From a virus: DNA of 64,000 nt. The notes beneath the pieces are model-generated. The model saw only the letters and a list, made by a program, of their open reading frames with translations, made no database searches and had not been told where the DNA came from. Shown here one piece after another: positions 4,728-30,123 of the stretch. The position numbers and the translations under genes are program-made. How positions within the stretch are numbered: position 1 is the stretch's first letter; each line of letters opens with the position of its first letter. The stretch is from IMG/VR virus record IMGVR_UViG_3300010346_000998, one strand, 5' to 3'.

Positions 4728-6110
4728 ATGAAATTTTTACCATATAAATTATATCTTAATGAAGATGAAGATGAAGATGAATATAACGATTTAGATTCCT
4801 CCAGTATTAATAAAAAATATTGGGACGATGGGCGGGGAGCAGTAGGAGGCATTTTTATTGCCGAAGACACGGGTCGTATTTTGTTGGCCCATCGTAGTAG
4901 CGAAGTTGATTTTGAACCTCTTACATGGGGAACTTGGGGAGGAAAAATAGATAAAAATGAATCGCCCGAAAATGCTCTTATAAGAGAAATTAAAGAAGAA
5001 ACTAAATATAATGGAAATTATAAAATAGTTTATCTTTGGACTTTTACTGATAAAAAATATAACTTTAAATGTCATAATTATCTTATACTTGTCCCATTTC
5101 AATTTTATCCTCGACTTAATTGGGAAAATGATAATTTTAAATGGGTAGAATGGGGAAAATGGCCTTATCCAATGCATTTTGGACTAGAAGAGCTCATTAA
5201 AAATGCTGGACAATCACTTATAAAAATTATAGAGTTGATTAAACAAAAACAATCCAATATGCACGAATCTATAGATATGCCACCAGCTATAGTGCAAGTT
5301 GTATCAACTACTTCACCTAAAACTTATAATATTACAAATGAATATATTTTAGCTGCAACTTTATGGAAGGAAGCTCGAGGTGAAGGCGAACGGGGAATGC
5401 AAGCTGTAATGAATGTTATTATGAATAGAGCTAAAGGAGATTTTAAAAAAGCCAAAGATATTGCATTAGCTTCTAAACAATTTTCGGCTTGGAATAATAT
5501 ATCTAATCCAGAACAAGTAGCTTTAACATTTGCTAAACAAGTTAAAAATGATGAACAGTGGAAACAAGCTATTAAAATTGTATATCAAGCATCTAAAGGT
5601 AACCTTCCTGATATTACAAAAGGAGCCATATGTTATTTTAATCCAAAATTAGTACATCCATCATGGATGAGAAGTATGATAAAAACTACAGAAATTGGGA
5701 ATCATTCTTTTTATAAACCTAATAATACTATAAAAAAGAAAAAATCTACTTCTATGCGTGAAGAAATTGAAACTCAAGATTTAAATCAGATTACAATCCA
5801 AAAAAAATCTTTGGTTGGGGATGGTATTTGGGAATATGAATTAAAAACTCCAAAATCATATTTAAGATATAGATATGAGCCAGTTGCCCGTATATTTTAT
5901 CTTGATAATATTTGTACTCCTAAACAAGAAGATAAAAATAAAGGATATGCTAAATCTCTTTTAGAATCTTTTTTTCGTCTTATTAAAAAATACGGTGGAG
6001 TTTTAGATACAGGTCCTTATACAACATCTGGTACATCTTATATAAAACATGTTGTTGAAAGATTATCAAAACAATATGGAGTAAGGATTGTAAAAGGAAA
6101 TTATGATTAA
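4728..6110 (+). CDS. Nudix hydrolase + SleB-type cell-wall hydrolase + GNAT-like fusion protein
   Basis: Nudix box GGKIDKNESPENALIREIKEET; Hydrolase_2 motifs ATLWKEARGE...AVMNVIMNR, KQFSAWN and IGNHSFYK; C-terminal YLDNI...NKGYAKSLL resembles the GNAT acetyl-CoA loop. Confidence 0.8.
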   Translation: MKFLPYKLYLNEDEDEDEYNDLDSSSINKKYWDDGRGAVGGIFIAEDTGRILLAHRSSEVDFEPLTWGTWGGKIDKNESPENALIREIKEETKYNGNYKIVYLWTFTDKKYNFKCHNYLILVPFQFYPRLNWENDNFKWVEWGKWPYPMHFGLEELIKNAGQSLIKIIELIKQKQSNMHESIDMPPAIVQVVSTTSPKTYNITNEYILAATLWKEARGEGERGMQAVMNVIMNRAKGDFKKAKDIALASKQFSAWNNISNPEQVALTFAKQVKNDEQWKQAIKIVYQASKGNLPDITKGAICYFNPKLVHPSWMRSMIKTTEIGNHSFYKPNNTIKKKKSTSMREEIETQDLNQITIQKKSLVGDGIWEYELKTPKSYLRYRYEPVARIFYLDNICTPKQEDKNKGYAKSLLESFFRLIKKYGGVLDTGPYTTSGTSYIKHVVERLSKQYGVRIVKGNYD

Positions 6111-8217
6111 GCTTAAAAATATTTTGGAATTTAGCTGGTGTGATAAAGATTATGGCGGAATTCCACCCGGAGGAGGATTTGGATATAATACTGAATATGA
6201 AGTGGGGTTACAAACAATTTTGGAAGCTGCTCATTGTATTCTTGGTTCTATTGACCGCAGTTTAGGGAAATCTACCTCTATTACATCAACCGAAGCAGAA
6301 CATATAGCTCAAGAAATATACATTATAAAAAAGACTCTTTTAGAATATGGCAAGCCTCTTTATTTAAATTTACAACGTAATGAATTTTCACAAAATATTA
6401 TATCTAATTTAATTAATGTTTCTCAAAAAATTTCTCCATCAGTAAAAAAATATATGAATTCTTTTTCAAATTTAAAAGATAAGATTGATAAAATTACTTT
6501 TGAAATTGGAATGGAAACTTATCGTTTTGCTTTAATGGTTTATTCCGCCGCGGCTAAAACATTTGAAGAAACTCCTCCTAAATCAGCATTTCGAGATATA
6601 GGAGTTTGGAATTCTTTTGAAAAATTAGATAAATTAATAAATTTCCTTACATCAAAAGATAAATCTTTACTTACAGAAGCAATAACCGATGAACAAGCCA
6701 AAGCGGCAATAGACTTTTTAAAGGAAAAAGTTAATACAGGGCCATTTAAAAATATGGTTTATTTGGCCGGCGGCCCTGTTCGAGATATGATTATGGGAAA
6801 AACTCCCAAGGATATTGATTTAACTATAGTCAGCAATTCTATTTTTGGAGCTTTAAAATTTACTTCATGGTTAGCTAAAGAAATGGGTAATTATAAGGGA
6901 CCAACTACGCCCCCGCCAACTTTTCCATCTCATATTGAAGTCGATGATTATGGTGCGCCTAAATCTACTCCTTTAGAAAATGACCCCGCCTTTATTAAAG
7001 CAGTTAAAGATTATAATAATTATTATTCATTATATTCTAATCCTGTTGTTTTTCCGAGATTTGGAACCGCTAAAGTTGATTTAACGGGGATTTATAATGG
7101 AGTAAACTTAGAAGGCGTGGATGTAGAAGCAGTTTCGGCTCGTAAAGAATTTTATGAAAAAGGTAATCGAAAACCGATTAAGGTTCTTCCCGGAACATTG
7201 TCCGATGATGTTTTTCGCCGAGATTTTCGTTGTAACAGTTTGATGTTAGATTTAACATCCGGGCAAATACACGACTTAACTGGGGAGGGAATTAATGATA
7301 TTAAAAAAGGGAAACTTGTTACTACTTCGGACCCCGAAATTATTTTTAGGGAAGACCCTTTACGAATGTTACGTGCCATTCGATTTATGGTTCAAAAAGG
7401 ATTTTCCCTTTCTAAAGAAACCGAAGAAAATATCAAGAAAAATGCAGAGTGGCTTAAATTTATTTCTCGGGAACGAATTCGTGATGAGTTAGATAAAATA
7501 ATTGTTACCAAAGACCCAAGCACCGCTTTTCGAAAATTAAACGAATTGGGATTATTAAAATATGTTTCTCCGGAACTAGCTCAAATGATTGGCATGACGC
7601 AAAATGCTCATCATACCGATGATGTATTTGACCATACAATGGCAGTTCTTGATAAAACACCGCCTGAATTAATTCGTAGGCGAATGGCTCTTTTTCATGA
7701 TATTGGCAAGCTTGTTACGCGCACCGTAACAAAAACCGGAGTTCATTTTTATGGACACGAAGAGGCCGGACCCGACGTTATTCAAAAGGTTATGTCGAAT
7801 CTTAAATATCCACAAATAGATATTGACGCGGTTAAACTTGGGTGTAAATATCATATGAAATTAAAACACGGAGGCGATGATGCTTCAAAATTATCTGACG
7901 CCACTCTGCGCGAATTTAAAATTGAAATGGGAGAGTATTTAGAACATTTATTGGATGTTATACATGCTGATAATATATCTCATGCGGATTCTTCAACTAT
8001 GCCCGGACAAATTGAAATGGTTCGGCAACGTTTGCGACAAGAAAATATGAAAATGGATAAAGTAACTCTTCCTATTACAGGAGAAGATTTAATTGCTATG
8101 GGTATAGAACCCGGTCCGCGTATTGGAAAAATTATGAAATCTCTTCGTAAAGCGTGGTATAAAAATCCTTATATGACAAAACAACAAGCATTGAATATTG
8201 CTAAAGGAATACGGTAA
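6103..8217 (+). CDS. cca: CCA-adding tRNA nucleotidyltransferase (class II) with HD domain and N-terminal leader/extension
   Basis: LAGGPVRD...DIDL, RRDF, EDPLRMLRAIRF, ISRERIRDEL, HD-domain DHT...LFHDIGK and C-terminal ITGEDL...GPRIG; the first ~190 aa are an extra region starting MIKLKNILE. Confidence 0.9.
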   Translation: MIKLKNILEFSWCDKDYGGIPPGGGFGYNTEYEVGLQTILEAAHCILGSIDRSLGKSTSITSTEAEHIAQEIYIIKKTLLEYGKPLYLNLQRNEFSQNIISNLINVSQKISPSVKKYMNSFSNLKDKIDKITFEIGMETYRFALMVYSAAAKTFEETPPKSAFRDIGVWNSFEKLDKLINFLTSKDKSLLTEAITDEQAKAAIDFLKEKVNTGPFKNMVYLAGGPVRDMIMGKTPKDIDLTIVSNSIFGALKFTSWLAKEMGNYKGPTTPPPTFPSHIEVDDYGAPKSTPLENDPAFIKAVKDYNNYYSLYSNPVVFPRFGTAKVDLTGIYNGVNLEGVDVEAVSARKEFYEKGNRKPIKVLPGTLSDDVFRRDFRCNSLMLDLTSGQIHDLTGEGINDIKKGKLVTTSDPEIIFREDPLRMLRAIRFMVQKGFSLSKETEENIKKNAEWLKFISRERIRDELDKIIVTKDPSTAFRKLNELGLLKYVSPELAQMIGMTQNAHHTDDVFDHTMAVLDKTPPELIRRRMALFHDIGKLVTRTVTKTGVHFYGHEEAGPDVIQKVMSNLKYPQIDIDAVKLGCKYHMKLKHGGDDASKLSDATLREFKIEMGEYLEHLLDVIHADNISHADSSTMPGQIEMVRQRLRQENMKMDKVTLPITGEDLIAMGIEPGPRIGKIMKSLRKAWYKNPYMTKQQALNIAKGIR

Positions 8218-8218
8218 T

Positions 8219-8941
8219 ATGATAAAGCTTAAATCTATTTTAAGAGAAAATGAACAATTAAATATTACTATTGAAGATGTTGAATCTCTTATAGCAAGTA
8301 AATGGACTAGCCAGGATGTTATTAGTTTATTAAGAACTATCGAAGAATTTTATTATTCGGATAATCCTAAAGAAAATGGATGGGCCAAAGATTATTTGAA
8401 TTTATTAAATGAAGTTATGACTAAGGTTATTAAATTGACTAAAAATTTAAATGTTCCTCATATCAATATAAAATTTATTAAAAATAATTTACTGGAACAA
8501 CAAGGAGAATTTAAATTTAAAGTAGAAGAATTTTTTCCATTTCCTGTTTATGTTTCTGCCAAACCAAATGTAGATGGATATTGGGCAGAAATAGGAATAT
8601 TAATAGACCAAAATGGAAAAGTATTAGAAATTTTTGAAGGCAATGATGAAGCTTCAGTTGAAACAATACAATTAGTAAATCAATTGGTTAATCCCGCCGG
8701 AAAATCGGTTCGTATATATGGATTACATAATACTAATTTATGTCATAAAATAAAAGAAGAAGGGTATTTGCCTCCTAATTTATATGTATCGCCCGATAAA
8801 GAACATGCTAGCCGACATTGGGACAATACAGATAGGTCTATGTTTACAGGAATGGTTAATATTAATGATTTATCTCAAGAAAGCGAAATAGATTGGAAAA
8901 CCATTAAAAAAACTAAAATAGATAAATTTAAATGGATATGA
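8219..8941 (+). CDS. MIKL-leader protein with degenerate ADP-ribosyltransferase-like C-terminal domain
   Basis: Starts MIKLKSILRE at ATG 8219, just after the upstream stop; C-terminal RIYGLH...IKEEGYLP..LYVSP...HA pattern resembles ART strands. Confidence 0.5.
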   Translation: MIKLKSILRENEQLNITIEDVESLIASKWTSQDVISLLRTIEEFYYSDNPKENGWAKDYLNLLNEVMTKVIKLTKNLNVPHINIKFIKNNLLEQQGEFKFKVEEFFPFPVYVSAKPNVDGYWAEIGILIDQNGKVLEIFEGNDEASVETIQLVNQLVNPAGKSVRIYGLHNTNLCHKIKEEGYLPPNLYVSPDKEHASRHWDNTDRSMFTGMVNINDLSQESEIDWKTIKKTKIDKFKWI

Positions 8942-9315
8942 TAAAATTAAAAAATGTCATTTTAGAAAGGCGTATAAAAATATACCGGGGAGTATCTTAT
9001 TCAAATGAGGGAGGAGAATTTTATGCTACGTCTATAGAACAGGCACGTGGATATTCGTTAACAGGAAAAGAGATAGAAACAGCTGAAATCGACTCTAGTA
9101 GAATTTATCGAGCTCCTAAGCTTCCATTCGGCGGAGATGAAAGAGAAATAGAATCGGCAATTGAACAAGCCAATGAAAATGGGTATTCTGCTTTCTGGGT
9201 ATATGAAGGACAATTTGAGGCTCCTTCTATTTATGTTATAAATCCAGATATTCTATTTAATAGAAAATCAATTAAACTTCCTCCGCAAAGAAGAAAAAAA
9301 CATAAAGAAATTTAA
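8938..9315 (+). CDS. MIKL-leader protein, ADP-ribosyltransferase-like domain
   Basis: MIKLKNVILE leader (ATGA overlap with upstream stop); IYRG...GEFYATSIEQARGY pattern typical of phage ART folds. Confidence 0.6.
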   Translation: MIKLKNVILERRIKIYRGVSYSNEGGEFYATSIEQARGYSLTGKEIETAEIDSSRIYRAPKLPFGGDEREIESAIEQANENGYSAFWVYEGQFEAPSIYVINPDILFNRKSIKLPPQRRKKHKEI

Positions 9316-9316
9316 T

Positions 9317-9508
9317 ATGTTAAAATTAAAAAATATTATTTTAGAACAATATATAGAAATATATCGGGGGCCGGGCAAAAAGCTGAACGCCCCCGCCGCC
9401 GAACTATTTATATCTTTTTGTGGTGGCGATACTTGGGGTGACGTGTCTTCTCAAAAAGCTCGATTTTTCAAGAATGCAATACAAAAATTTAACGAGATAT
9501 GGCAATAA
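9317..9508 (+). pseudogene. Short MIKL-leader ORF; probable truncated or frameshifted ART-like paralogue
   Basis: MLKLKNIILEQYIEIYRG parallels the previous gene, then diverges and stops at 63 aa; a shifted frame continues FSRMQYKNLTRYGNKFKGIINKSYI to 9543. Confidence 0.4.
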
Positions 9509-9665
9509 ATTTAAAGGTATTATTAATAAAAGCTATATATAAAATGTTACAAAATTAAATTTAGAAATAAATATTAAAATTTAATTTATACAATTAAATG
9601 AAATATTTATAAAAGTATGGCTATTATTTGTACTAGATATCAAATTCAACTATTTTATAAATATT

Positions 9666-10451
9666 ATGATTAAACTAGCTTCTTTATTAAAAACAATAAA
9701 ATCCCATAAAAGAATCCAAAGAATTACTGAAGATAAATATGATTCCGTGGATAAATGGGATAACTGGTTAGATTATCTCAAAGAAGATGGGTATGGTATT
9801 GATATAGTAATTATTAAACAACTTATAAAAAAATTTAATATAAATATCAAAGGATATTTTAAACATAAAATTCTTCGTATATGGGATGAAAAACAAGTCG
9901 CATATCTTTATAATGATGATACAGAAAATGTAGAATATATGTATGTCGAAGATATTAAAGAATTTATTGATTTGTTTGATGTTGACAATGCTGATGAATT
10001 AGGAATTGACCCCGAAAAAATTTATAATCCTTGGATTGAATCTTCATTATATGATTTAAAAAGAAATCCAGGAATAGTTTATCATTGGACAACAAAAGAA
10101 AAATGGGAAGAAATACAAAAATCAGGTAAAATTCTTCAATCGAATGGTACAAGTCTTACTAATCAAAATTATCGTGGTATTTTTACTACATCTAATCCCG
10201 AAGAATATGATACCGGCATATATGGCAATATTTGTTTAGAAATAAACTTAAATGCATTTATGGAATCGGTTGGATATGCATTTCTTACTCTGGAGTTTGA
10301 ACCCGAAACAACAGAATATTTATTAAAGGATTATATTTATAGAGGTTTAGATTTAACTGGCGAAGTTCATTTTCCAAATAGTGATGGCGTTTCTCCTTAT
10401 ACAATTATTGTTGGTCATAATATACCAATAAAATTTATTAAGCCAATATGA
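9666..10451 (+). CDS. MIKL-leader protein with C-terminal ADP-ribosyltransferase-like domain
   Basis: MIKLASLLK leader; from about aa 137 IVYHWT...IQKSG...GIFTT...YGNICLEI, an ART-type strand pattern. Confidence 0.6.
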   Translation: MIKLASLLKTIKSHKRIQRITEDKYDSVDKWDNWLDYLKEDGYGIDIVIIKQLIKKFNINIKGYFKHKILRIWDEKQVAYLYNDDTENVEYMYVEDIKEFIDLFDVDNADELGIDPEKIYNPWIESSLYDLKRNPGIVYHWTTKEKWEEIQKSGKILQSNGTSLTNQNYRGIFTTSNPEEYDTGIYGNICLEINLNAFMESVGYAFLTLEFEPETTEYLLKDYIYRGLDLTGEVHFPNSDGVSPYTIIVGHNIPIKFIKPI

Positions 10452-12187
10452 TTAAATTAGTATCATTATTAGAAAGAGTCGAAATAACTCCTGAAGGAAA
10501 TCTAAGAATTCCCAGTGTGGATGATATTTCTCTTTCTCAATGGGCACGAATTAATCGTATTATGGTTCAAAAGGGATATGATATGCGAGGGGCCGAAGAT
10601 TGTAAACAATCCGTTACTAAATTTCTTACTAATCCACATAATAGTGCTCCAGATGTTATTGATAGAAAAATTTATAAAGATTGGGTAGAAACTATTGCAA
10701 CTGTTATGCACCTTAAAGACAAATCAAATGTTGTTAAAGGTGATTATGATTGTAAACAAGTTTTACGAGCCGCTATGCGTCACTTTGGAGCCGCATATAA
10801 TATATTAAATGCAGGCTATATTCTTCCTAATGGATTCCTTATAAATCTGAGCTCTGGAACAGGAGGCGGACGAGATTTAGACCATCGAGAAATTGCGACG
10901 ATATATTCTAAACTTGGAATCAAACTATTCAATGATAATGAAGGCTCGGCCTTTGTTTATGTAAAAGCTTTTATGAGAGATTGTCGGGCAATTCGAACAG
11001 GCGGAAATCAACCATTTGTAGAAATGTGGCACGAGCCCACTCAACAACAAATTGAACAACTTCGGCATTTATTTAAAATTTTTAATGGTTATATAATATT
11101 AGTTGTAAAATCACAGAAATATGGCAATGCCGAACAACAATATAAAAAAGGAACGTCCCCCAATAAAATTTTACAAGATATTATAACTTTTTATCGGACG
11201 GGGGAGTTTCCTGATAAATTATTCGAAAATATAATTCTTAAAGAATTAAAGGAAACAGATTTGTCTTCAAAAGATAAAGACCATAAATATATTTTAATTT
11301 ATAAAGAAAATTTATTTATTTTAGATGAAAATAGTAATTTTACCAGTGCATTAGGAACATTAGAATTACATCCTGGATACGATAAATATGTATCGCATTC
11401 GACTGATGTATATGATTTTCTTCAAATGGCTTCTGATATGGGGCCTGATGTTTTAGTAGGAGAATGGCTACCGAATAATAAAGCTCTTATTGTATGGAGT
11501 TCAAGTGAAATTATTCCACAAACATCACTACAAGTTAAAAAAGCTGCTCAACATCTTGGTGTTAAAGTTATTACTTATCGATATCTTGGAAGTGTTGAAA
11601 GTGGCGATATGATGGAAAAAGACATTCCTATTAAAAAAATTAAGGGTGAAATTCCAAGGGTGATGTATCATGGAACTTCTAATAGAGAATTAGAAAGTAT
11701 TTTAAAATGGGGTCTTGACCCAACAAGAGGTACATCAAATTTTACCCGCCAGGGAATTTATCATCCATATCATATTTTCTTAGCAGCAAATTTTGAAGCA
11801 GCTCAATTTTATGCTTGGAATGCTGCTCAAAATAATAAATCTTCTTATTATAGATATCCTGTCATTCTTGAAATTAAAGTACCGGACCCTAATTTACTTG
11901 CTCCTGATTATGATGCTGATATCACAGCAGGTCAAAATTCTTATTATGACAGAGATAATTTATTTATAGACAAAGCATCAATGAAAGCAACGGGACTTTC
12001 CAGAGAAACAGGAAAATGGGGTTATAAAGGACGAATTCCCGCTACTTTTATTACATGGATACATTATTATAATGCGCATCAACGTAAATGGCATAAAATT
12101 AGGAGAGAAACATTAATTCGACTTATGGAAAAATATGATTGGGAAATTATTTCATTAAAACTTGGAATAGAAACCATAGATTCTTAA
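10448..12187 (+). CDS. MIKL-leader multidomain protein with C-terminal ART/Tpt1(KptA)-like domain
   Basis: MIKLVSLLE leader; from about aa 405 VMYHGTS...SILKWGL...IFLAANFEAAQFYA...PVILEI...GRIPATFI. Confidence 0.7.
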   Translation: MIKLVSLLERVEITPEGNLRIPSVDDISLSQWARINRIMVQKGYDMRGAEDCKQSVTKFLTNPHNSAPDVIDRKIYKDWVETIATVMHLKDKSNVVKGDYDCKQVLRAAMRHFGAAYNILNAGYILPNGFLINLSSGTGGGRDLDHREIATIYSKLGIKLFNDNEGSAFVYVKAFMRDCRAIRTGGNQPFVEMWHEPTQQQIEQLRHLFKIFNGYIILVVKSQKYGNAEQQYKKGTSPNKILQDIITFYRTGEFPDKLFENIILKELKETDLSSKDKDHKYILIYKENLFILDENSNFTSALGTLELHPGYDKYVSHSTDVYDFLQMASDMGPDVLVGEWLPNNKALIVWSSSEIIPQTSLQVKKAAQHLGVKVITYRYLGSVESGDMMEKDIPIKKIKGEIPRVMYHGTSNRELESILKWGLDPTRGTSNFTRQGIYHPYHIFLAANFEAAQFYAWNAAQNNKSSYYRYPVILEIKVPDPNLLAPDYDADITAGQNSYYDRDNLFIDKASMKATGLSRETGKWGYKGRIPATFITWIHYYNAHQRKWHKIRRETLIRLMEKYDWEIISLKLGIETIDS

Positions 12188-12229: not shown

Positions 12230-13069
12230 TTAACCTTGATGAGTAAAATTAACAGCATCTATGCAAGGCGCGGGTTTTCCTTGTACTTCAGCCGGATACC
12301 CCGCATCATCAAATACTTTTTGGTGATGAGATTGTCGAATATATTCTTTAAGTTTAGGATGTTTAAGCGCCTCTTGAAAACTTTCTTTCCATGTTTTTTG
12401 TACCGGATTTCCAACTTCTGTTAATTGAACATTTCGGTGAATTTCATTTGCAATTGATTTCCAACAAGTAAGGGCTCGTCGACGCCATGTATCTCGGTCT
12501 TTTCCGTGGTTATTCCGAAAATGAATTTCAAACATTAAACGGCTGCCATCATTAAACATAGCAACAATATGTCTATCTCCTTCATATAAACGATATTCTT
12601 TATGATAATGGTGGAAGCTTTTATTTTCATTCATTGTATTTTTAGAATTTAATATTTTTCCTTTATCATAATTTTTTAACCAAGAAGGAAGACGATTTTT
12701 AAGAATTTCAAATGGAATATTTTTAAATTGTTTATTTTTTTTCTTTACTAAAATATCTATTCGAGGACCAATATAACCATCTTTACCAACTTCCATATCG
12801 GGGTCATTTTCTATAGAATTAATTTTTATAATTTTTTCAATGCCCAGTATAATAATATTTAAATCTTCAGGTTGAAGTGACCAAGTTAAAATTTCAATTT
12901 TATTCTCAGAAGATTTCATATGTTTGTACCCATCTTTTAAAGCTAAATTGGACGATTTAATTTTTTCATGAGAAATTTCCCCCGTACTATCAATCCACCA
13001 TTCTCCTTTTTCATGGGCTTCTTTAACAATTTCTAAAAGATGGCTTAATTTAATTGGATTCATCTTCAT
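12230..13069 (-). CDS. Hypothetical protein with IKL-type leader
   Basis: 279 aa ORF beginning MKMNPIKLSHLLE; no recognised catalytic motif. Confidence 0.6.
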   Translation of the reverse strand: MKMNPIKLSHLLEIVKEAHEKGEWWIDSTGEISHEKIKSSNLALKDGYKHMKSSENKIEILTWSLQPEDLNIIILGIEKIIKINSIENDPDMEVGKDGYIGPRIDILVKKKNKQFKNIPFEILKNRLPSWLKNYDKGKILNSKNTMNENKSFHHYHKEYRLYEGDRHIVAMFNDGSRLMFEIHFRNNHGKDRDTWRRRALTCWKSIANEIHRNVQLTEVGNPVQKTWKESFQEALKHPKLKEYIRQSHHQKVFDDAGYPAEVQGKPAPCIDAVNFTHQG

Positions 13070-13697
13070 ACATTACAATAAATTCGGGATTTTCTTTCAC
13101 AAAATTTTCAAATCGTTCATAAAGAATTTCTCTTTTTATATTTTCAGATAAAGTATCAAACCCAGAGCGACTGTCTGTATAAGAATCATTTGAATCTGAA
13201 ATATCAGGTGACAATTTAGTTTTTAAGTATTTTCCAAGGGCAAGTAAATGCTTACACATACCTATTCCATAATCTCCTACGCCCCCCTCGCTTCGAGGAC
13301 GCCATTTTTGACCATTATTTTCATTCCCAAATTTCCACTCTGGATGTTTTCCTATACGACCAACTCCCGCCTGTGCATTATTATATGCATATCGAAATCG
13401 ATAATCGGGACAATCACAATCGACCATGCATTCGAGTTGAGCAGCATTTTGGGACGCTCTTACATTTTCTTTAAAAAATTGAATATATCCATGCCATCGC
13501 ATTCCAGTAGTCGAGGGAGATGATTTGTAAGAAAATGCCCATGCCTCATTTTCATCTAAGGTCATAACTCGCATGGGTTTTACACCTACATCAGTACGAG
13601 AACGTTCTTTTCTTCCTTCTTCACTTCTATTCCATAAAGATTGAAATGAAATTCTTTCAGTAAGGACTTCTTTAAGAATATTATAAAATGAAATCAT
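13050..13697 (-). CDS. SWIM zinc-finger protein with leader-like N-terminus
   Basis: CDCPD...MCKHLLAL is the CxC-x(n)-CxH SWIM signature; N-terminus MISFYNILKEVLTE. Confidence 0.7.
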   Translation of the reverse strand: MISFYNILKEVLTERISFQSLWNRSEEGRKERSRTDVGVKPMRVMTLDENEAWAFSYKSSPSTTGMRWHGYIQFFKENVRASQNAAQLECMVDCDCPDYRFRYAYNNAQAGVGRIGKHPEWKFGNENNGQKWRPRSEGGVGDYGIGMCKHLLALGKYLKTKLSPDISDSNDSYTDSRSGFDTLSENIKREILYERFENFVKENPEFIVMYEDESN

Positions 13698-13723: not shown

Positions 13724-14593
13724 TCAATTAGGTGGAAACTTTTTAAGGTATTCCATTTCAGCAATCTCGGAAACGCCCCTTATCACTGATTTTTTGTCCA
13801 TAGCATACAGACCCGCCGATGAGAAGCTGGTTAGCTCCATCAACCAACAATTCTTGTCATTATCTTGGCATATGTCGTAACAGAACACGGGGTCGGGTTC
13901 ATAATCTACTTCCTTGAGCAGAAGATTGACAAATCTGGTACATTCTGCGGGGACACTGGGGATTATACAAACATTCCCTTGAAACTTGTAAGTCGAAGAT
14001 GCGATAATACCCCTTTGTTTGGACACCACAAAACGACCTTCCCATAAAATGTTCTTAGGCGTCGACACCAGCATCAATTCATGTTCAACATCTTTATTGG
14101 AATCGTGCAATTGAGCCAAATCTACGATATCCAACAGCCCTGCTCGAAAGGTCTTTTCGCCCGAGTCGGGGCGAATGAAGATAAGGCACTCTTTACCATA
14201 TTGACCCCACACGTCATACTTCTGCCGCACTATTTCCTTAAGCGACATCATACAATACTTATCATTGAACAGATAAGGACCGAAATGCGAGTAGTAGGCA
14301 GAACACTTATACTTTTCCATCGTGGAGAACACAACAGGGGCGCACTCATTCTTTAATTCTTCTGCCATATTTTTGCATAACTTAATGGTCCCAGTAATCA
14401 TAACACATTGTTTATCATAAACGGCAGATTTCTCAATAAAATGGGAACTCTGTTTTAAATGTTTACGTATTATTTCATTTGTGTAGTTACCATTAATTTC
14501 AACAACGGGATATCCAAGCTCTTTAGCAGCCACTATAAGCTCTCTATATGAAGGGTCTTTTTCGAAATTTTCAATTATCCATGTAGTTTTCAT
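13724..14593 (-). CDS. ATP-grasp domain protein (R2K / DUF4343-like)
   Basis: FIRPDSGEKTF, EGRFVV, FCYDIC and LMELTSFSSAGLY match the R2K-clade ATP-grasp pattern (FI[RK]P...K.F; E.R; D; E.N/T...SSGLY). Confidence 0.7.
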   Translation of the reverse strand: MKTTWIIENFEKDPSYRELIVAAKELGYPVVEINGNYTNEIIRKHLKQSSHFIEKSAVYDKQCVMITGTIKLCKNMAEELKNECAPVVFSTMEKYKCSAYYSHFGPYLFNDKYCMMSLKEIVRQKYDVWGQYGKECLIFIRPDSGEKTFRAGLLDIVDLAQLHDSNKDVEHELMLVSTPKNILWEGRFVVSKQRGIIASSTYKFQGNVCIIPSVPAECTRFVNLLLKEVDYEPDPVFCYDICQDNDKNCWLMELTSFSSAGLYAMDKKSVIRGVSEIAEMEYLKKFPPN

Positions 14594-14666: not shown

Positions 14667-15455
14667 TTATCCTGTCAAAGCTACTGTCCAAAAATCTGAA
14701 ACTAAATTCCAATTAGACATATATTCATAAGGCATAGTAAAATATCCGGCATTATTTCCTTTAAGTCCCCATTTTTTACCCCATGAATTTTTAATTAAAA
14801 ATCGTTTTTGATAATCATTATATCCTACTCCTAATACAGCATGACCGCCTAAACATTTTTCATTTGGCTTAGGCATTTGTGCAATACCTGTCTTTTCCAT
14901 TTCTTTGCTCATAAAAGATTCATAAACCAGAAATCCAAATACAAAACATTGTCCATTAGCTATACATGTTTTCATATCAGCCAAAGAATTTAATGCATAA
15001 TAGCTATGAATTCGTCTTTCTAATGCTTTATTATAACAATCAATTTTAGGTTTAACTTTAAATTTAGAAATTTTATATGGCCAAATTTTTTCTACACATA
15101 CACCTTCTGTTGCTAAAGTTTTTGCACCATCTCGAAGATAAGCGCCCGAATCTTGGTCCACTGTTCCTTCTAAAAGCCGCTCATTATAATAAATAAATAA
15201 ACGACTTAAATCTTGATATTGTTTTCCTCCAAATCCATTTCTACAAGCATTATATTCCAATAAACCAGCCCATGCATTAGCAGTACAACTTCCTAATTCA
15301 CCTTGGTCTTCTACTTCCGAACACCAATATCGATTATTTACTACTGGCGGAAGGTCTTTATAAATATAATTTTTAAGCCGGAGTAATCGTTCAAACCCAA
15401 AGTCTCTAGGGTCATCCTTTTGTGGTTTCCATCCAAATTTTCGTTTAATATTCAT
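14667..15455 (-). CDS. Papain-like cysteine protease (peptidase C1A)
   Basis: Catalytic motifs DQGELGSCTANA (Q, C), GGHAVLGVGY (H) and IKNSWG (N). Confidence 0.92.
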   Translation of the reverse strand: MNIKRKFGWKPQKDDPRDFGFERLLRLKNYIYKDLPPVVNNRYWCSEVEDQGELGSCTANAWAGLLEYNACRNGFGGKQYQDLSRLFIYYNERLLEGTVDQDSGAYLRDGAKTLATEGVCVEKIWPYKISKFKVKPKIDCYNKALERRIHSYYALNSLADMKTCIANGQCFVFGFLVYESFMSKEMEKTGIAQMPKPNEKCLGGHAVLGVGYNDYQKRFLIKNSWGKKWGLKGNNAGYFTMPYEYMSNWNLVSDFWTVALTG

Positions 15456-19772: not shown

Positions 19773-20096
19773 ATGAAATTAACTGAGCTTTTAAATTCAA
19801 TCGATGCCCAAAAAGAAATGGGACTTATTAATATCGAAGATTGGCGATGGCCCGAAGTAGCTCACTTAACAGATATGGGATTTAAAATTATAGACGAATA
19901 TCATATGGAGACAGAAAAACCTCCTAAAATGACAATTTATAAAAAGAAATCAAAAGATGAATCAATGGGCGAATCAATATCTCATTTTTATATTGAAGAA
20001 CCAAATAAACCCATTAAAAGATTTAAAAGCTTCGATGAAGTTATTCATTTTTTTGATTCTTATGAACAGCCCCAATTTAATCCGGATGATTTTTAA
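19773..20096 (+). CDS. Hypothetical protein (MKLTE leader-like)
   Basis: 107 aa ORF closely coupled to the previous gene. Confidence 0.65.
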   Translation: MKLTELLNSIDAQKEMGLINIEDWRWPEVAHLTDMGFKIIDEYHMETEKPPKMTIYKKKSKDESMGESISHFYIEEPNKPIKRFKSFDEVIHFFDSYEQPQFNPDDF

Positions 20097-21970: not shown

Positions 21971-21984
21971 AATTTTAATTTATA

Positions 21985-24177: not shown

Positions 24178-24188
24178 AATATAACTTT

Positions 24189-24217
24189 AATGTATCACCA
24201 AACATGTATATTGTCAA
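24189..24217 (-). promoter_or_regulatory. Sigma70-like promoter of the nucleotidyltransferase gene
   Basis: Minus strand TTGACA-N17-TACATT, 11 nt before ATG 24177. Confidence 0.7.
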
Positions 24218-24242
24218 CTGTTTTTTTAAAACAATAAAAATA

Positions 24243-24764: not shown

Positions 24765-24785
24765 TATTATAATATAAAAACATTA

Positions 24786-24963
24786 TGAACTACCCACCCG
24801 CTAAAGCAGGGGGTTTCCCACCAAGCAATAGTTGTGAGTTTCTATAGGGTAATTCCTACCCCACAATAAAGATTGCGCACAGATATATCTGTTTTTGACA
24901 ATGTTAATTCTAATGATAGCTTCATATGTTATCAACATACATTATAACATAATTGTTTGTCAA
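24786..24963 (-). mobile_element. IS200/IS605-family (TnpB/IscB-type) end hairpin remnant with a 27-codon mini-ORF
   Basis: Minus strand GAAACCCCCTGCTTTAGCGGGTGGGTAGTTCA resembles the recalled CTTTAG-loop terminal hairpin of IS605/IS1341 ends; preceded by mini-ORF 24842-24925 MKLSLELTLSKTDISVRNLYCGVGITL. Confidence 0.6.
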
Positions 24964-25022
24964 GTTAAATGTACTACTTACTTGTTAAATCTAGTAAGAT
25001 TTTGTTAAAAGACCATTTTTTA

Positions 25023-25051
25023 TTGACATACAAGGTTAAATATGCTAGGTT
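25023..25051 (+). promoter_or_regulatory. Sigma70-like promoter
   Basis: TTGACA-N17-TAGGTT with TG extended -10, 6 nt before ATG 25058. Confidence 0.6.
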
Positions 25052-25057
25052 CATAAT

Positions 25058-25420
25058 ATGAAAAAAGCATCAAATACATATACGGTTGCCGCAGCATGTG
25101 AAAGAATATTTTGCACCAGAAAAGAATATAACAAATTAAAAATTTTACTTAAATCTAGGTTTTTTGAGCATGGATTTAAAATGAAATACATTGAAAATGG
25201 TGCGTTTTTATATTCCAAAAATCCAGATTCTATGAATCCCGAATGTTTACCAAAGCCATTTTTAAGTTTTTTATCTAAATTACTTAGGAATATTGACAAA
25301 ACAAGCTTAACTGTGGGATATGCTTATTTTGATGATATTAATTGTACGGCATCTTGCGGCGGGGGAGATTTTAAAATTACAGATAATGGAGATGTAATTT
25401 TTCCAGTTTGTTATTATTAA
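25058..25420 (+). CDS. Hypothetical protein
   Basis: 120 aa ORF with its own sigma70-like promoter. Confidence 0.65.
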   Translation: MKKASNTYTVAAACERIFCTRKEYNKLKILLKSRFFEHGFKMKYIENGAFLYSKNPDSMNPECLPKPFLSFLSKLLRNIDKTSLTVGYAYFDDINCTASCGGGDFKITDNGDVIFPVCYY

Positions 25421-25423
25421 ATT

Positions 25424-26902
25424 TTATGATTTAAGAATATTTTTAGTTGAGTAACAATTAATGACTTCAGTATAAATTTTTCTATCCAGATGCAAGTCTT
25501 TAATTTCTTTACCACAATGTTCACATTCAGAGCAAACTATATAGTCTGACGGGGTTTTAAATTCTACTTGAAGTTTAGAATTTTTACCACAATGAGAACA
25601 TGGCCATTTAACCTCAGTAAATAAAGTTTCTGGTTCGGGAAGTTCTTCATCGCCAATATTTCCTCCGAAAAGAGATTCGTCTCCCCTTACATTTTTCTGT
25701 AGCTTTAATACATGGTTAATAATATTTTTTGCTAAAGATGGGTCATATTTTTCAGGTATTGGGAATTTATTATTTATATGTTTACCCGGCATATTATCTA
25801 CTTTTTCATTATCATAATAACGTTCCAGATGAACACAATAATCCCGATAACTGAAACCTACATTAATTGTTGCAAACCCCATTGAATACCATTCCATATA
25901 ATCTTGCGGAGCATCTCCTTTGAGGCGAAAACCATGTTTTTTTAATACGGAAAATACTTCTTTTTTAACTTTTGTAATTGTATCATCGTGCTCGTTTTCT
26001 TTTATAATTGTTTTTCTCCTTGCTTTATTTTCTGTAATGTTCCAGGGGTCATCTGGAATTCCTAATATAGCTATATTATCTTCAATATGATTTTTTAATT
26101 TTAAACAAATTTCAACTATCTTTTTTACAATACGAGGGTCGTAAGTTTCAGGAATTGGATATTTTTTTACCACTTGATATCCTGGCATATCATTCCAATA
26201 TTCACTGTCATAATAACGTTCAATCTGAACTTGTTTCTTTTCATTTTCAAAATTTATAGAAACGGTTGCTACACCATTTGCATAATATTCCATATAATCA
26301 TTTGGTGTATTACCTAAAAGACGAAAATGGTGCTTTTTTAATTCTTCAAATACTTCTTCTTTAATTCTTATAATTGTAGGTTTTTGTTCTTTGTTTTTTG
26401 CAATATTTGAATCTAAAATAACATTAGGACTATTGTCATCATAATTTCTCCAATGACATACGTTACAGCGTGCTCTTCCATCGGGGTATCGACTTATTTC
26501 TTTCTCATTAGAATTTTTACAATTAGGGCATAGAGCATTAGGGAAGGTTCTTTCACTTTCAAATTTTTTAATAATTTCATAATTTTTAAGACGTGACAAA
26601 GGCTCACCATCAGGAGTAATTGTATAAATGTCCGGAGTTTTCTTTCCTAAATTTATATCAACATACAGTCGTCCCGTTTTATCTTGATAAATAGGACGTC
26701 CAAATTCATCCTCTTCTCCTGTTGCGTATAAATGTATTTTTTTTGCACCGCTTTCTTCCATCCTAGCCATTTTTTTATTCCATGCCGGATATGGATTTTC
26801 ACTAGGAATATTTGGACCTTGAGAAGTTGGTTCAAACGATTCCATTAAGAGGTTTTCTTTTAAAACTTCCAAGATACATTCTTTAATAAAATTATGAAGC
26901 AT
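25424..26902 (-). CDS. Multidomain hypothetical protein with FIKEC leader, a duplicated ~90-aa domain and Zn ribbons
   Basis: MLHNFIKECILEVLKE; two copies of EVF..LKKH.FRL.G..P.DYME.Y...ERYYD.E....MPG...PIPE.YDP; CPNC/CNVC and CSHC/CEHC. Confidence 0.75.
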   Translation of the reverse strand: MLHNFIKECILEVLKENLLMESFEPTSQGPNIPSENPYPAWNKKMARMEESGAKKIHLYATGEEDEFGRPIYQDKTGRLYVDINLGKKTPDIYTITPDGEPLSRLKNYEIIKKFESERTFPNALCPNCKNSNEKEISRYPDGRARCNVCHWRNYDDNSPNVILDSNIAKNKEQKPTIIRIKEEVFEELKKHHFRLLGNTPNDYMEYYANGVATVSINFENEKKQVQIERYYDSEYWNDMPGYQVVKKYPIPETYDPRIVKKIVEICLKLKNHIEDNIAILGIPDDPWNITENKARRKTIIKENEHDDTITKVKKEVFSVLKKHGFRLKGDAPQDYMEWYSMGFATINVGFSYRDYCVHLERYYDNEKVDNMPGKHINNKFPIPEKYDPSLAKNIINHVLKLQKNVRGDESLFGGNIGDEELPEPETLFTEVKWPCSHCGKNSKLQVEFKTPSDYIVCSECEHCGKEIKDLHLDRKIYTEVINCYSTKNILKS

Positions 26903-28175
26903 AAGCTAAAATTTCAAAGTTGGTTGGTTGCCCCGGTTGAGATTTATTATACCAAGAAAATACAATACGACTATTTATAATTTCTGGTTTTTCAGTAAAA
27001 GGGTCGGCTCCTGGGTCATTAATTCTACGATAAGTTAAATTATCTATATGGCCGCTATCACCCATAATCCTATCGGCGGTTACCATATCAAGGATAAATC
27101 CCAATGAATCTAAAGCATTTGTTATGGCTAAAAGGCCATGTTCTTTTTTTTCAAATCGACCATTGCCATCTAATCCCAAATTTACAAATTTTTTATTAAT
27201 ATCTCTTCGTTCATTATTTGTAATTTTATGGTCATTTTTAATATTTTCTTTAAGTTTTACTAAATTTTTAGCAACGTTTTCATTTTTATCGCATAACTTC
27301 TTTGCTAATTCCCAAGAACCCATACCTTTATTTTTATCGCATAACTTCTTTGCTAATTCCCAAGAACCCATACCTTTTTCAGAAGGTAATTCTTTAGTTG
27401 GGTCAGCCATATGAATTTTCGGTTTTTTAGTATCTATATTAGAAGGAGAATTATGTGGAATTGATTTTGCTGCGGCTAAACCAAGCAACCCGGCCAAAGC
27501 TAAAGACGAATACTTTCCTTCTTCTATTGGTTCGGGCTCAATTAAAACTTCCGCGATACAACGACGTATAAAAGAATTAAGTTTTTTATTTTTCATTTGA
27601 TGAGATTCTGTAAAAAATTTATTTTTAAGTTGAGGATTAGATTCCATAATTGACTTGCGTTTCGGGTCATATACGAATAGAGCACGTCCAATACAATCAT
27701 ACAAACCTACCTTTAATCTCGGACATTTGTCAACATAATCTTTAAATATTTCAATAGCAATATCTACATTATCAAAATTATCTATTGATTTAAGATACTC
27801 ATCTGTCTTTGGAGTACGAAGTTCTATACTAAGAGGTAATTTATATTCTTCGCCTCTACATATACATGTTTTAGGTTTAGTTGGAGGTTGATGTTCTAAT
27901 AGAGTACGTCCAATATAATCATACAAACCTATCTTTAATTTTGGATGTCTATCAACAACTTTTTTAAATATTTCAAGAGCTATTACTAAATTATCAAATT
28001 CTATTGATTTAATATATTTATCTGTCTTTGGTCTGCGGAAAGTTATACGAAGGGGGAACTCATATTCTTTACCATTGTATGTACATGTGTCCCTATATTC
28101 ATTAATTTGAAATGGTCCAGAATTAGAAAATTTAATTTCTGAGCCTTTATTTAAAAATGAATGTATTTTTTCCAT
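26892..28175 (-). CDS. Multidomain hypothetical protein (duplicated N-terminal domain; C-terminal ILAYAS domain)
   Basis: Two copies of C...G.EY..PL.I..R.PKTD.Y.KSI...GLYD.IGR; internal leader FIRRCIAEVLIE; C-terminal domain paralogous to 28832-29245. Confidence 0.75.
   Translation of the reverse strand: MEKIHSFLNKGSEIKFSNSGPFQINEYRDTCTYNGKEYEFPLRITFRRPKTDKYIKSIEFDNLVIALEIFKKVVDRHPKLKIGLYDYIGRTLLEHQPPTKPKTCICRGEEYKLPLSIELRTPKTDEYLKSIDNFDNVDIAIEIFKDYVDKCPRLKVGLYDCIGRALFVYDPKRKSIMESNPQLKNKFFTESHQMKNKKLNSFIRRCIAEVLIEPEPIEEGKYSSLALAGLLGLAAAKSIPHNSPSNIDTKKPKIHMADPTKELPSEKGMGSWELAKKLCDKNKGMGSWELAKKLCDKNENVAKNLVKLKENIKNDHKITNNERRDINKKFVNLGLDGNGRFEKKEHGLLAITNALDSLGFILDMVTADRIMGDSGHIDNLTYRRINDPGADPFTEKPEIINSRIVFSWYNKSQPGQPTNFEILAYAS
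27282..27377. repeat. Perfect 2 x 48-nt tandem duplication (KGMGSWELAKKLCDKN)
   Basis: 27282-27329 is identical to 27330-27377. Confidence 0.95.
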
Positions 28176-28190
28176 ATCCTGATAAAATTG

Positions 28191-28817
28191 TTATCCTATT
28201 TCAGAAAGAATGTTACGAATAATATCGTCAGTACGTTCCCAACGATTAGTTGTTGGATTTTTATATTCAACTCCCTCGGAAAGTGAAACTTGCCCTACTG
28301 GACTCATAAATGCCCCCTGTGTTGATGGATTTGATACAAAATCAAAAGCAATTAATTCAAAGTCATCTCCGACGACGGCGGCATTCTCAGAGATTTTTTT
28401 AAGAGTACCAAGTCCACGACTCGATATACCAAGTTTAATTCCATTTCGAAAAAGCTCGCGTAAAATGTTTCCGTTAGGAGTTGTAAGAACTTCAACAGTT
28501 CCAACAAGGTCATCGCCATCCCAATGCATTTCTGTTACTGTATGAGATACATTTTTAAGATTGACGACGGATGATTCGGGATGGTCCAATTCTCCCATAG
28601 CTCGTCGGTCAGCAATAAATGTTCGGGCATATTTATCGGCCTCACGTATAAGAACTTCGTCTGGATAAATTCTTCCATTCTGATTTTTCTTTCCTTTTCG
28701 TTGCAAAATTCCTCGCACCATAAAAGGCTGATTTGGATTTGCCGCAGATTCTTTAAGCATTTGCTGGTCTGCCTCAAATGTAATGCATTCGACTAAAAGT
28801 TTTCTATCTGAGTTCAT
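28191..28817 (-). CDS. Prohead core protease, T4 gp21-like
   Basis: NQNGRIYP, AMGELDHP (His), LGISSRGLG (Ser) and FDFVSNPST motifs. Confidence 0.95.
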   Translation of the reverse strand: MNSDRKLLVECITFEADQQMLKESAANPNQPFMVRGILQRKGKKNQNGRIYPDEVLIREADKYARTFIADRRAMGELDHPESSVVNLKNVSHTVTEMHWDGDDLVGTVEVLTTPNGNILRELFRNGIKLGISSRGLGTLKKISENAAVVGDDFELIAFDFVSNPSTQGAFMSPVGQVSLSEGVEYKNPTTNRWERTDDIIRNILSEIG

Positions 28818-28831
28818 ATTTTTAAAATAAT

Positions 28832-29245
28832 TTATGAAGCATAAGCTAAAATTTTATATTTTTCTCCACTGGGAAATAAATGTGTTGGTGCATATAATGA
28901 TTCCCATTGGAATATTATTTGGCTGTTAGAAATTTCAGGTAAATTATTAAACGGCGTTTGTCCCTCTAATTTTTTACGATAAAAATTAAATTTCCTGTTG
29001 CCACTGGCTCCCATAAGTAAATCAAGAGTTGCTGTTTCAATTTGAAACCCGAGGTCCCACAAAGCCATTGCCGCCAATTGAAATCCATGTTCTGGTTTTC
29101 TAAAAATTTTATCTTTATTAAGCCCTATATTTTCAAACTTATTATTAATAAGAAAACGTTCTTTTTTAGTTAAAATGTTACGAGTTTTATTTTCAATAAT
29201 GACCTCAGATATACATTCTTTTATAAATGTTTTAATATGTTTCAT
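28832..29245 (-). CDS. Hypothetical protein with FIKEC leader (ILAYAS domain)
   Basis: Start moved to ATG 29245, just after the upstream stop: MKHIKTFIKECISEVIIE; paralogous to the C-terminus of 26892-28175. Confidence 0.7.
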   Translation of the reverse strand: MKHIKTFIKECISEVIIENKTRNILTKKERFLINNKFENIGLNKDKIFRKPEHGFQLAAMALWDLGFQIETATLDLLMGASGNRKFNFYRKKLEGQTPFNNLPEISNSQIIFQWESLYAPTHLFPSGEKYKILAYAS

Positions 29246-29247
29246 AT

Positions 29248-30123
29248 TTATGAAAACGTTTTCTTTATACGAACAATCCATTTTCCTTCTTCTAATACGG
29301 GGTCAAATTTAACTAATGAATATTGAGCTCTTTCATTTTTTTCTGGATTTGAAATTGTATTATTTCTTTTCAATATATCTTGTATCATTTGAGCATTAAT
29401 TTTAGTTTTAACCATATCAAATGGTATTTGTAATTCAAATATTGCTACAGATGTACGATTATCAAGCTTTTTTTTCCACCCCTGTTTTTTAATAAATTCT
29501 TGAATTTGAGTTTCTGGATTTTTAAAAAAGACGGGCAACCATTGTTTAACATCTTCTACAATATTATCTACTGAATAAGCATCAAAAACATTATTTTTGT
29601 TTTCCGATTCCTTTATCTTAGTTTCAGGAGGGGTTTGTCCCGCCGGTGCTAAAGCCATAGGTTGTGACTGAGATATATTAGAATTCTGCCCTGGCTGAGT
29701 CGTCGTCGGGTCCGTTGGTTTCGATTTTTCAAAGCGAGGGTCTCCGCCTTTCTGCGGAGAAGGTTTTCCTGTAGAAGGTCCGAGAATTTGAACCTTACGT
29801 CCAAATCCCGTTTTAAGGAAATACTCCTTTGGTTTTGGGGTTGTATTATCATATGCTATTACAACAAAATTATCATAACCATCTTCAATTTTAATATTCG
29901 CAACATCGAATTCATATTCTTTAACAAATTGCTTATATCCGCGAGAAGCACTTGCTTTTATTCTTTTCCCCACAAGATACGTGGCCATTTTCTTTTCATA
30001 GGTTTGTTTTATTTGCTGATTAGACCCTTCTATCATTCTATTGAAAGCCGCAAAATCCGCCCCAATATCATAATATTGATTCTCAGCCCCGTATTGCTCT
30101 ATAATATGTGATAATTTAATCAT
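29248..30123 (-). CDS. MIKL-leader hypothetical protein
   Basis: Begins MIKLSHIIE; lies in the head module. Confidence 0.7.
   Translation of the reverse strand: MIKLSHIIEQYGAENQYYDIGADFAAFNRMIEGSNQQIKQTYEKKMATYLVGKRIKASASRGYKQFVKEYEFDVANIKIEDGYDNFVVIAYDNTTPKPKEYFLKTGFGRKVQILGPSTGKPSPQKGGDPRFEKSKPTDPTTTQPGQNSNISQSQPMALAPAGQTPPETKIKESENKNNVFDAYSVDNIVEDVKQWLPVFFKNPETQIQEFIKKQGWKKKLDNRTSVAIFELQIPFDMVKTKINAQMIQDILKRNNTISNPEKNERAQYSLVKFDPVLEEGKWIVRIKKTFS

Follow-up and report, generated by a model that had tools for sequence, protein, structure and literature searches.

A portable N-terminal leader on otherwise unrelated proteins of a distant T4-like virus resembles a capsid-targeting propeptide

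The virus recorded in IMG/VR as IMGVR_UViG_3300010346_000998, of which we analyzed a stretch of 64,000 nucleotides (hereafter the window; ~32% G+C across its 64 kb), is a myovirus distantly akin to T4, judging by the proteins it encodes, which include a gp20 portal protein (32567-36682, minus strand, with two inteins; PF07230, 4e-67), an S77/gp21-type prohead protease (28191-28817, minus strand) and a gp23-type major capsid protein (15612-17348, minus strand; PF07068, 3.3e-72). We found no close match to the window among GenBank phages, and the nearest cultured phages are the Flavobacterium phage immuto and the Microcystis phage Mel-JY01 (terminase ~47-48% and protease ~50% identical). Within this window 9 or 10 genes open with the same short leader, of the form M-I-K-L-x-x-[LI]-[LIV]-(x)-E. 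A preliminary description of the window had listed nine such N-termini and proposed that they address diverse proteins to the capsid for later injection, a proposal that we examine here.

The leader and its carriers in the window

The plus-strand cluster of leader genes (6103-12187) follows a gene that lacks the MIKL leader. This first gene of the cluster (4728-6110, N-terminus MKFLPYKLYLNE-12) combines a NUDIX domain (4.5e-13) with a SleB-type cell-wall hydrolase (Pfam Hydrolase_2, 2e-17) and a C-terminal tail. The first leader-bearing product (6103-8217; 704 residues) begins with MIKLKNILE, which is followed by a variable pro-region of ~190 residues and then a class II CCA-adding/poly(A) polymerase-type nucleotidyltransferase with an HD domain (Pfam PolyA_pol_RNAbd, 8.7e-20, and PolyA_pol, 3.4e-17; PHROG 2244, 3.8e-54). 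Next, MIKLKSILRE opens a two-module protein (8219-8941) that matched no Pfam or PHROG family, and MIKLKNVILE a 125-residue protein (8938-9315; an alternative ATG two codons upstream is possible), possibly a small ADP-ribosyltransferase (ART) of the ART-PolyVal kind. In an Atlas feature search, its top clusters were those with PF18760 ART-PolyVal (172 features in common, score 0.93) and AcrIF11-type ARTs, which we treat as a lead only. The 63-residue protein behind it (9317-9508) begins MLKLKNIILE, and the two are 72% identical over residues 1-18 only (BLASTP, E 1.4e-5). The following gene (9666-10451) has the variant leader MIKLASLLK, in which the first [LIV]xE is ITE-22, on a 261-residue cargo with the sequence VYHWTT; a weak Atlas lead (0.82) suggests that it is possibly ART-like. 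The last gene of the cluster (10448-12187) begins with MIKLVSLLE and encodes a fusion of two cassettes; a search of IMG/VR with this gene found no close relative. Its residues ~262-579 form an ADP-ribosyltransferase-fold module: the structural model (predicted local distance difference test score, pLDDT, 76; predicted template-modelling score, pTM, 0.75) had ART folds as all of its best 50 PDB matches (pertussis S1, 1.9e-5; Tpt1/KptA; DarT1; Rhs TreX), with which the Atlas search and sub-threshold Pfam matches to Tpt1 and PARP agree.

The cluster converges on two genes of the minus strand, the strand of the capsid protein gene, from which they are the fourth and the third gene downstream, respectively; genes for a C1 peptidase and an ATP-grasp protein intervene. 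The first of these (12230-13069) begins MKMNPIKLSHLLE and encodes a 279-residue protein for which neither Pfam nor PHROG yielded a family. Its leader, IKLSHLLE, is displaced by 4 residues, starting at 13054 behind MKMNP; offsets of 1-4 residues are also seen in relatives (e.g. MRISLKRIME and MSKQISLKHMLAE). The second (13050-13697) has the weak leader MISFYNILKE on a 215-residue protein with a SWIM-like CxC...CxH motif (PHROG 18980, 8.4e-5); its homologue in one relative (L034; 42% identity) begins with MIRLKDLLLE. Lowering the Pfam threshold to E values of up to 5 gave nothing useful for the genes at 8219, 8938, 9317, 9666, 13069 and 13697. The remaining clear case is MIKLSHIIE on a conserved 291-residue head-module protein (29248-30123, minus strand) encoded directly upstream of the protease gene, between portal and protease. 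Its model consists of two domains, with the leader forming a helix at residues 4-12 and a disordered linker at 126-178; a Foldseek comparison with the PDB returned nothing below E 0.03, and a tblastn search of GenBank phages no match. A similar start is seen in a 107-residue protein (19773-20096, plus strand) with 15 homologues: it begins with MKLTELLNS, and most of these homologues with MIKLTELLNS, MISLKEILNT or similar.

All nine N-termini of the preliminary description lie at or near the places it gave, although that at 13069 is displaced, that at 13697 is weak and that at 9666 has no glutamate before ITE-22. It reasonably assigned them to the head module or its neighbourhood, the gene at 30123 lying between those for portal and protease. 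The names that it gave to the cargo stand in part: the CCA enzyme is supported by Pfam and one ART fold by the model of the 10448-12187 product, whereas SWIM is a motif without a Pfam match at 13050-13697 and the other ARTs are language-model leads only. It overlooked a second leader class beside the protease, relics of the leader in fused genes and the lineage-wide extent of the tag, all of which are described below.

The recurrence of the leader is not due to chance. The two strands together have 2620 ATGs, of which only 6 begin the complete motif, each time at the start of a long open reading frame (ORF), and a strict regular expression matches 5 of 56 gene N-termini vs none of 382 internal methionines; 2000 random draws with N-terminal composition gave a mean of 0.015 such matches and a maximum of 2. 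Behind the leader, the cargo proteins are pairwise unrelated by BLASTP, the sole exception being the 18 residues common to the products at 8938 and 9317. Codons differ between copies (ATT/ATA, AAG/AAA, CTT/TTA/CTA) and the 40 nucleotides upstream of the leader genes are unrelated to each other, indicating that the likeness resides in the protein and not in the DNA. On the same two grounds we rejected the idea that the shared start reflects DNA repeated from gene to gene, e.g. a cassette with a promoter or a ribosome-binding site. The leader is far above expectation and selected at the protein level.

Distribution of the leader among related viruses

A related protease is encoded by 505 IMG/VR contigs, and we fetched 80 loci. 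The commonest N-terminal tetrapeptide in these loci is MIKL itself (64 of 2417 ORFs). In 38 non-redundant N-termini picked by M[IL]KL alone, position 7 is always leucine, isoleucine, phenylalanine or methionine, 35 have an aliphatic residue (L/V/I/A/M) at position 8, and an [LIVM]xE lies inside the first 12 residues in 34, with the glutamate at position 9 or 10 in most. Likewise, an [LIVM]xE ending at positions 7-12 is found in 59 of 72 MIKL genes vs 228 of 1148 other genes of the relatives. The 291-residue protein has 78 homologues in the same place directly upstream of the protease gene, with I2, L4 and E9 conserved in at least 90%, so that the tag marks the protease-adjoining gene across a large clade; it is kept there among relatives whose proteases are 60-87% identical. 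At least 120 stretches of IMG/VR DNA encode MIKLKDLLxE, where chance would give well under one (16 fixed bases).

The 2.3 Mb of fetched DNA contain 255 unique tagged ORFs, which clustering by cargo sorted into 110 groups; their median length is 165 and their maximum 767 residues. The notion of a portable tag, grafted onto diverse proteins, was thereby borne out well beyond the window, with about 110 cargo families in relatives. Domains recovered behind the leader include PF18760 ART-PolyVal (in L060; 6.5e-19) and DUF6267 (2e-32), along with an NT5C match just under Pfam's cut-off (4e-5); others are small proteins with YH[GLY]T right behind the leader, and proteins with HAD-like and P-loop-like starts. 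One relative of 296 kb, estimated to be complete (G003), contains 18 pattern matches vs 3 for the control, of which 3 lie in the head module and the rest include arrays of 9 and 4. The larger array (L083, 4513-13904; 207.5-216.9 kb of the genome) encodes nine paralogues that are alike in their ~35 N-terminal residues (MIKLKDLLLEN..IF[VI]PRR[MI]EDR) and divergent in their C-termini, a layout like that of polymorphic-effector arrays; hints of leucine-rich repeats (LRRs) in it are sub-threshold only.

Such arrays raise the question of whether the shared N-terminus is simply a trace of common descent, left by tandem duplication with C-terminal replacement, in which the tag would have no present function. 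The clustering of the window genes at 6103-12187 and of the G003 genes at 207-216 kb accords with this, as does the likeness of the nine paralogues over ~35 residues, i.e. beyond the leader. However, I2, L4 and E9 are near invariant while the next 10-20 residues diverge freely in viruses whose proteases are 60-87% identical, and the leader recurs on the ~110 cargo clusters. We therefore consider a functionless remnant improbable. Internal-protein loci of T4 also evolve by duplication with swapping of cargo, which makes descent the route by which such tags originate rather than a true alternative.

Some tagged N-termini may be hidden in public annotations. In the CCA enzyme of the relative L088 (1386-3671), the public gene call uses the third in-frame ATG; 18 nucleotides upstream the N-terminus reads MIKMKEMLPE, which shows that automatic start calls can conceal leaders. 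In the cultured, T4-like Vibrio phage KVP40, an ART-module homologue (KVP40.0290; L211, 5851-6969) starts with MKNLKSFMEE, which looks intermediate between the T4 and MIKL tags. A scan of KVP40 for tags of the T4/KVP40 type found just 2 N-termini, making it unsuited as a cultured model for the arrays. Our literature search found no papers with MIKLKD, MIKLKN or similar strings, nor any paper on Mel-JY01.

Leader relics at module junctions

Comparison of fused proteins with their stand-alone counterparts revealed that the leader, or a site like its end, recurs inside proteins where modules meet. Residues 86-240 of the 8219-8941 product match a complete stand-alone protein of 154 residues (1-154) in the relative L086 (68% identity, E 1e-82, BLASTP); that protein starts with MIKGYLLDQ, and the window protein has the relic FIKNNLLE-93 at the same point. 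Similarly, residues 1-256 of the 10448-12187 product match a stand-alone 258-residue L086 protein, and the fusion point holds the relic NIILKELKE (residues 262-270). Stand-alone homologues of the ART module behind it, from other assemblies (328-341 residues), begin with MIEFASLLNE, MIHLKPLLDE, MIRLKPLIKE, MINLKTLLTE and MIKLSPMLNE, starts of the general form MI[EHRNK][LF]xx[LM]LxE.

The CCA enzymes provide a further example. An LL[TM]E|A junction ahead of the CCA core is conserved in the window, L086 and L088, although the parts upstream of it differ: in the window these are the leader and the 190-residue pro-region, ending in LLTE-192; in L088 the leader and a different module of ~290 residues with a ParB-like motif; and in L086 (5544-9599) a single ORF of 1351 residues joins the Nudix/cell-wall hydrolase, ~360 extra residues and the CCA enzyme, with the joint reading ...TLLME|AITDEQ. 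We think that these junctions point to cleavage, for which they would be the strongest indirect evidence that the sequences offer. They also suggest how polyproteins and single-domain effectors interconvert.

The junctions also bear on whether the shared start might be an expression or stability feature (an AT-rich and lysine-rich beginning that aids translation initiation, or a signal for degradation or a chaperone) of many accessory genes, with no part in packaging. The AT-rich codons ATG-ATT-AAA-TTA would be at home in a genome of ~32% G+C, and the breadth of the cargo, with ~110 families including metabolic-looking enzymes, would also suit a general signal of this kind. Nevertheless, relics inside proteins cannot act on initiation; positions 7, 8 and 9/10 are conserved, the hydrophobic pattern and the glutamate being fixed despite the varied codons; and the leader, while marking the conserved gene next to the protease, is on none of the identifiable non-structural genes of the window (terminase, RlaP nucleotidyltransferase, DUF5662 and a methyltransferase-like gene). 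We accordingly regard this explanation as unlikely.

The prohead protease and a second leader class

The leader ends in a sequence that resembles the cleavage sites of the family to which the protease encoded in the same head module belongs. That the gene at 28191-28817 encodes an S77/gp21-type prohead protease, as first proposed from the letters of the window, is confirmed by matches to PF03420 (5e-26) and PHROG 207 (6e-51), and H79 and S132-S133 are invariant across 46 homologues. T4 gp21 cleaves after the glutamate of [LI]-x-E (PMC9026906). It carries LIE-9 at its own N-terminus and is believed to become active by cutting off nine residues (PMC9026906, PMC9958956). A comparable site, KLLVE-10, is found at the N-terminus of the window protease and as KLL[VLM]E-10 in its closest relatives. 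In the same vein, T4 gp23 loses 65 residues (PMC9026906), and three [LI]xE sites, of which QLIEE-61 is the last, fall within residues 1-61 of the window capsid protein; aligned capsid proteins, including those of Mel-JY01 and immuto, conserve LLEGL, ILLEN and, at about residue 60, QL[LI]xE|[SA]. The 10-residue tag of T4 IPIII uses positions 4 and 7 for targeting and 8 and 10 for processing (PMC9026906). The MIKL leader is laid out similarly, with hydrophobic residues at 4, 7 and 8 and glutamate at 9 or 10, which is a match of pattern only. Co-folding of the protease with residues 1-45 of the 291-residue protein, for which we supplied the alignments, scored 0.00 and has no bearing either way.

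Examination of the genes flanking the protease (25424-29281, minus strand) uncovered a second motif, [LF][IV]K[EQ]C[IL]xEV[ILV]xE, which also ends in [ILV]xE. It sits at residue 5 of the 25424-26902 product and at residue 19 of the 149-residue protein encoded beside the protease (28832-29281), whose true start is probably Met13, and occurs internally at residue 202 of the 427-residue product of 26892-28175; these three genes are on the minus strand, and those at 25424-26902 and 26892-28175 have no family assignment. The closest relatives (L003-L020 and L041) have 29 occurrences, of which 19 fall among residues 1-25 of their proteins and 10 are internal; a protein encoded just downstream of the protease often has 2-3 of them, and the cysteine is invariant. 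As a guess by analogy, proteins of this second class might be counterparts of those T4 core proteins that are chopped into several fragments by gp21. The 427-residue and 149-residue proteins, encoded on opposite sides of the protease gene, are themselves related, the last 133 residues of the former being homologous to the latter (37% identity, E 7e-20) and both sharing an ILAYAS end. The 427-residue protein also has two tandem repeats of ~70 residues and a duplicated KGMGSWELAKKLCDKN.

A leader shared by unrelated proteins might instead be unconnected with the capsid and be recognized by a different enzyme, for example one that modifies peptides, in the manner of the leaders that direct ribosomally synthesized and post-translationally modified peptides (RiPPs) to one maturase. 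Candidates for such an enzyme are encoded next to the leader genes at 13050-13697 and 12230-13069, namely an ATP-grasp protein (13724-14593) and a papain-like peptidase (14667-15455). Against this, no such enzyme adjoins the leader arrays of G003 (207-216 and 268-270 kb), L086 or L088; the constant companion of the leader is the S77 protease with the head module, and it is in the cleavage motif of this protease family that the leader ends. A role of this kind thus appears very improbable.

A predicted capsid-targeting role

We estimate a probability of roughly 0.7 that the MIKL leader is this lineage's version of the capsid-targeting propeptide of T4 and that the prohead protease takes it off. 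By analogy with T4, we infer that the tagged proteins are targeted to the prohead, packaged, cleaved, retained in the virion and ejected, and that they may act in counter-defence. The leader proteins would be made late, alongside the head proteins, and their short amphipathic N-terminus would draw them into the prohead's scaffolding core, with the hydrophobic residues 4, 7 and 8 doing the targeting. Once the shell has closed, the protease (28191-28817) would cut behind the glutamate of [LIV]-x-E and so remove the tag; in fused cassettes it might also split the modules at leader relics or LLxE sites. The mature enzymes (the CCA-adding enzyme, the ART-fold proteins and others) would then remain in the head with the DNA and probably be delivered into the next host.

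Contigs picked by the leader suggest a link with the protease. We took 21 that are 40 kb or longer solely because they encode MIKLKDLLxE, and an S77 protease is present in 10. In 2 further T4-like ones a T4-type portal or gp23 gene lies within 5 kb of the contig end, and their protease may lie past it. In addition, an upstream motif offers weak support for co-expression of leader and structural genes. On the coding strand, TATTTATA occurs within ~120 nucleotides upstream of the leader operons starting at 4728, 9666 and 13697, and also upstream of the portal, the scaffold, 31577-32461 and tail-side genes, the full list of sites being upstream of 4728, 9666, 13697, 14593, 18892, 20155, 32461, 36682, 51931, 56574 and 59696. 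On either strand, TATAAATA occurs 42 times vs 17.9 expected.

Several observations weigh against a capsid-targeting role. The CCA-adding enzyme, the NT5C/HAD phosphatases and a P-loop kinase-like protein look metabolic rather than virion-like. The 9666 gene and the 19773 family have leaders without a glutamate at 9 or 10. Homology between MIKL and the T4 tag, MKTYQEFIAE, involves ~10 residues, which is too short to test. In one contig of 207 kb, estimated to be complete (G014; IMGVR_UViG_3300042387_000948), we detected no S77, S78, gp20 or gp23 despite a MIKL cluster. Finally, in the literature searched, neither the proteome of a virion nor a mapping of N-termini turned up for members of the group or for immuto and Mel-JY01. 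The MIKL cluster of G014 (L209, 4124-5895) consists of three adjacent leader genes beside tail-fibre-like genes.

Should the tag work as in T4, it would provide, from sequence only, a listing of the proteins that enter the cell with the DNA of many uncultured phages, where counter-defence and host takeover in the first minutes of infection are expected to reside. The cargo list would then be a catalogue of candidate effectors against defence systems, comprising the CCA enzyme, phosphatases and ART folds related to DarT, Tpt1 and possibly AcrIF11-like proteins, and the tag might serve as a packaging handle for phage engineering outside T4 and E. coli. A more far-reaching possibility, which we advance tentatively and think somewhat more apt to fail than to hold, is that T4-like viruses of a large aquatic branch, most of them uncultured, use a two-class 'address code', reused as a cut site, to load well over 100 enzyme families into the capsid. 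If so, LRR-like arrays, kinases, HAD/NT5C phosphatases, several types of ART and the CCA enzyme would be among this cargo; for an uncultured phage, the sequence itself would reveal which proteins are injected, and an injected tRNA-repair enzyme would be ready at entry against host defences that target tRNA.

Comparison with known systems

The capsid-targeting principle is reportedly known from T4 through the work of Mullaney and Black in 1996. T4 packages the ART Alt, and the proteins that accompany its DNA into the cell are limited to IPI-III and Alt. That internal proteins with little else in common bear a conserved capsid-targeting sequence is established for T4 and its close relatives (PMC3012670, PMC9026906) and is textbook knowledge, so that calling the present case an undescribed system, as the preliminary description did, was an overstatement. 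The two systems are alike in the S77 family of their protease and in a 9-10 residue N-terminal tag that ends in [LI]-x-E and has hydrophobic residues at 4, 7 and 8. In both, the tag is on otherwise unrelated proteins from variable clusters, one cargo class being an ADP-ribosyltransferase, as Alt is, and the capsid protein and protease carry matching sites. They differ in the sequence of the tag, MIKLKxLLxE here vs MKTYQEFIAE in T4 (PMC8442874), and in the cargo, which here is far more numerous, often large and enzymatic, whereas that of T4 is three small basic proteins. Further, a second, cysteine-containing leader class is encoded here beside the protease gene, and leaders serve as internal sites in fused proteins. 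The T4 system was also established by experiment, whereas that of the window is a reading of genomes. What is new relative to the published record is thus the sequence of the leader, its scale, the second class, the reuse at junctions and the enzyme cargo; the kind of system is itself known.

The polyvalent proteins described by Iyer, Burroughs, Anand, de Souza and Aravind in 2017 are effectors with two to fifteen domains per polypeptide that are predicted to be packaged and injected, and the ART-PolyVal family belongs to them (PMC5512222). Shared with these are effector chains next to virion genes and a domain vocabulary of ART-PolyVal (in L060), peptidoglycan hydrolases, NUDIX and GNAT. The polyvalent pattern fits the 1351-residue L086 protein and the 4728-6110 product, and the products of 10448-12187 and 8219-8941 are two-module fusions. 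PF18760 in the window is only the Atlas lead for 8938-9315, which has no Pfam match, the significant hit (6.5e-19) being that of the L060 relative. Polyvalent proteins, however, are described as processed by embedded peptidases of their own (e.g. MPTase) or as unprocessed, and they are not defined by a short shared tag. Most of the present cargo, by contrast, is single-domain with its own leader, and the junctions resemble prohead-protease sites.

In the giant phages phiKZ, 201phi2-1 and SPN3US, long propeptides of ejection or inner-body proteins are cut after glutamate by gp21-related proteases (PMC5694885, PMC10052503), and the giant-phage paralogues gp53 and gp54 have an identical 15-residue N-terminus that the authors likened to the T4 capsid-targeting sequence (PMC5694885). 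The present system resembles theirs in having a related glutamate-specific protease and, as predicted here, many processed head-internal proteins. Their propeptides, though, are mostly longer than 100 residues and have the motif [SAG]-x-E, whereas the tag described here is of T4 size and ends in [LIV]-x-E.

Other genes of the head region

The rest of the head module comprises, all on the minus strand, the large terminase (36800-38446), two genes without family assignment (31577-32461 and 30123-31556), and a scaffold-like protein (17381-18892) that inserted non-structural genes separate from the upstream head genes. In the scaffold-like protein PMGGEQNFGAGAPPPP is repeated four times in tandem, encoded by repeats at ~18250-18560 whose G+C fraction is 0.415 vs ~0.32 elsewhere; the protein has 16 [LIV]xE sites. 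The minus-strand genes that separate the capsid protein gene from the leader genes encode the papain-family C1 peptidase (14667-15455; PF00112, 1.3e-12) and the ATP-grasp protein (13724-14593), which is of the R2K type by a weak Pfam match and a match to PHROG 7313 (8e-33); the two may form a protein-modification pair.

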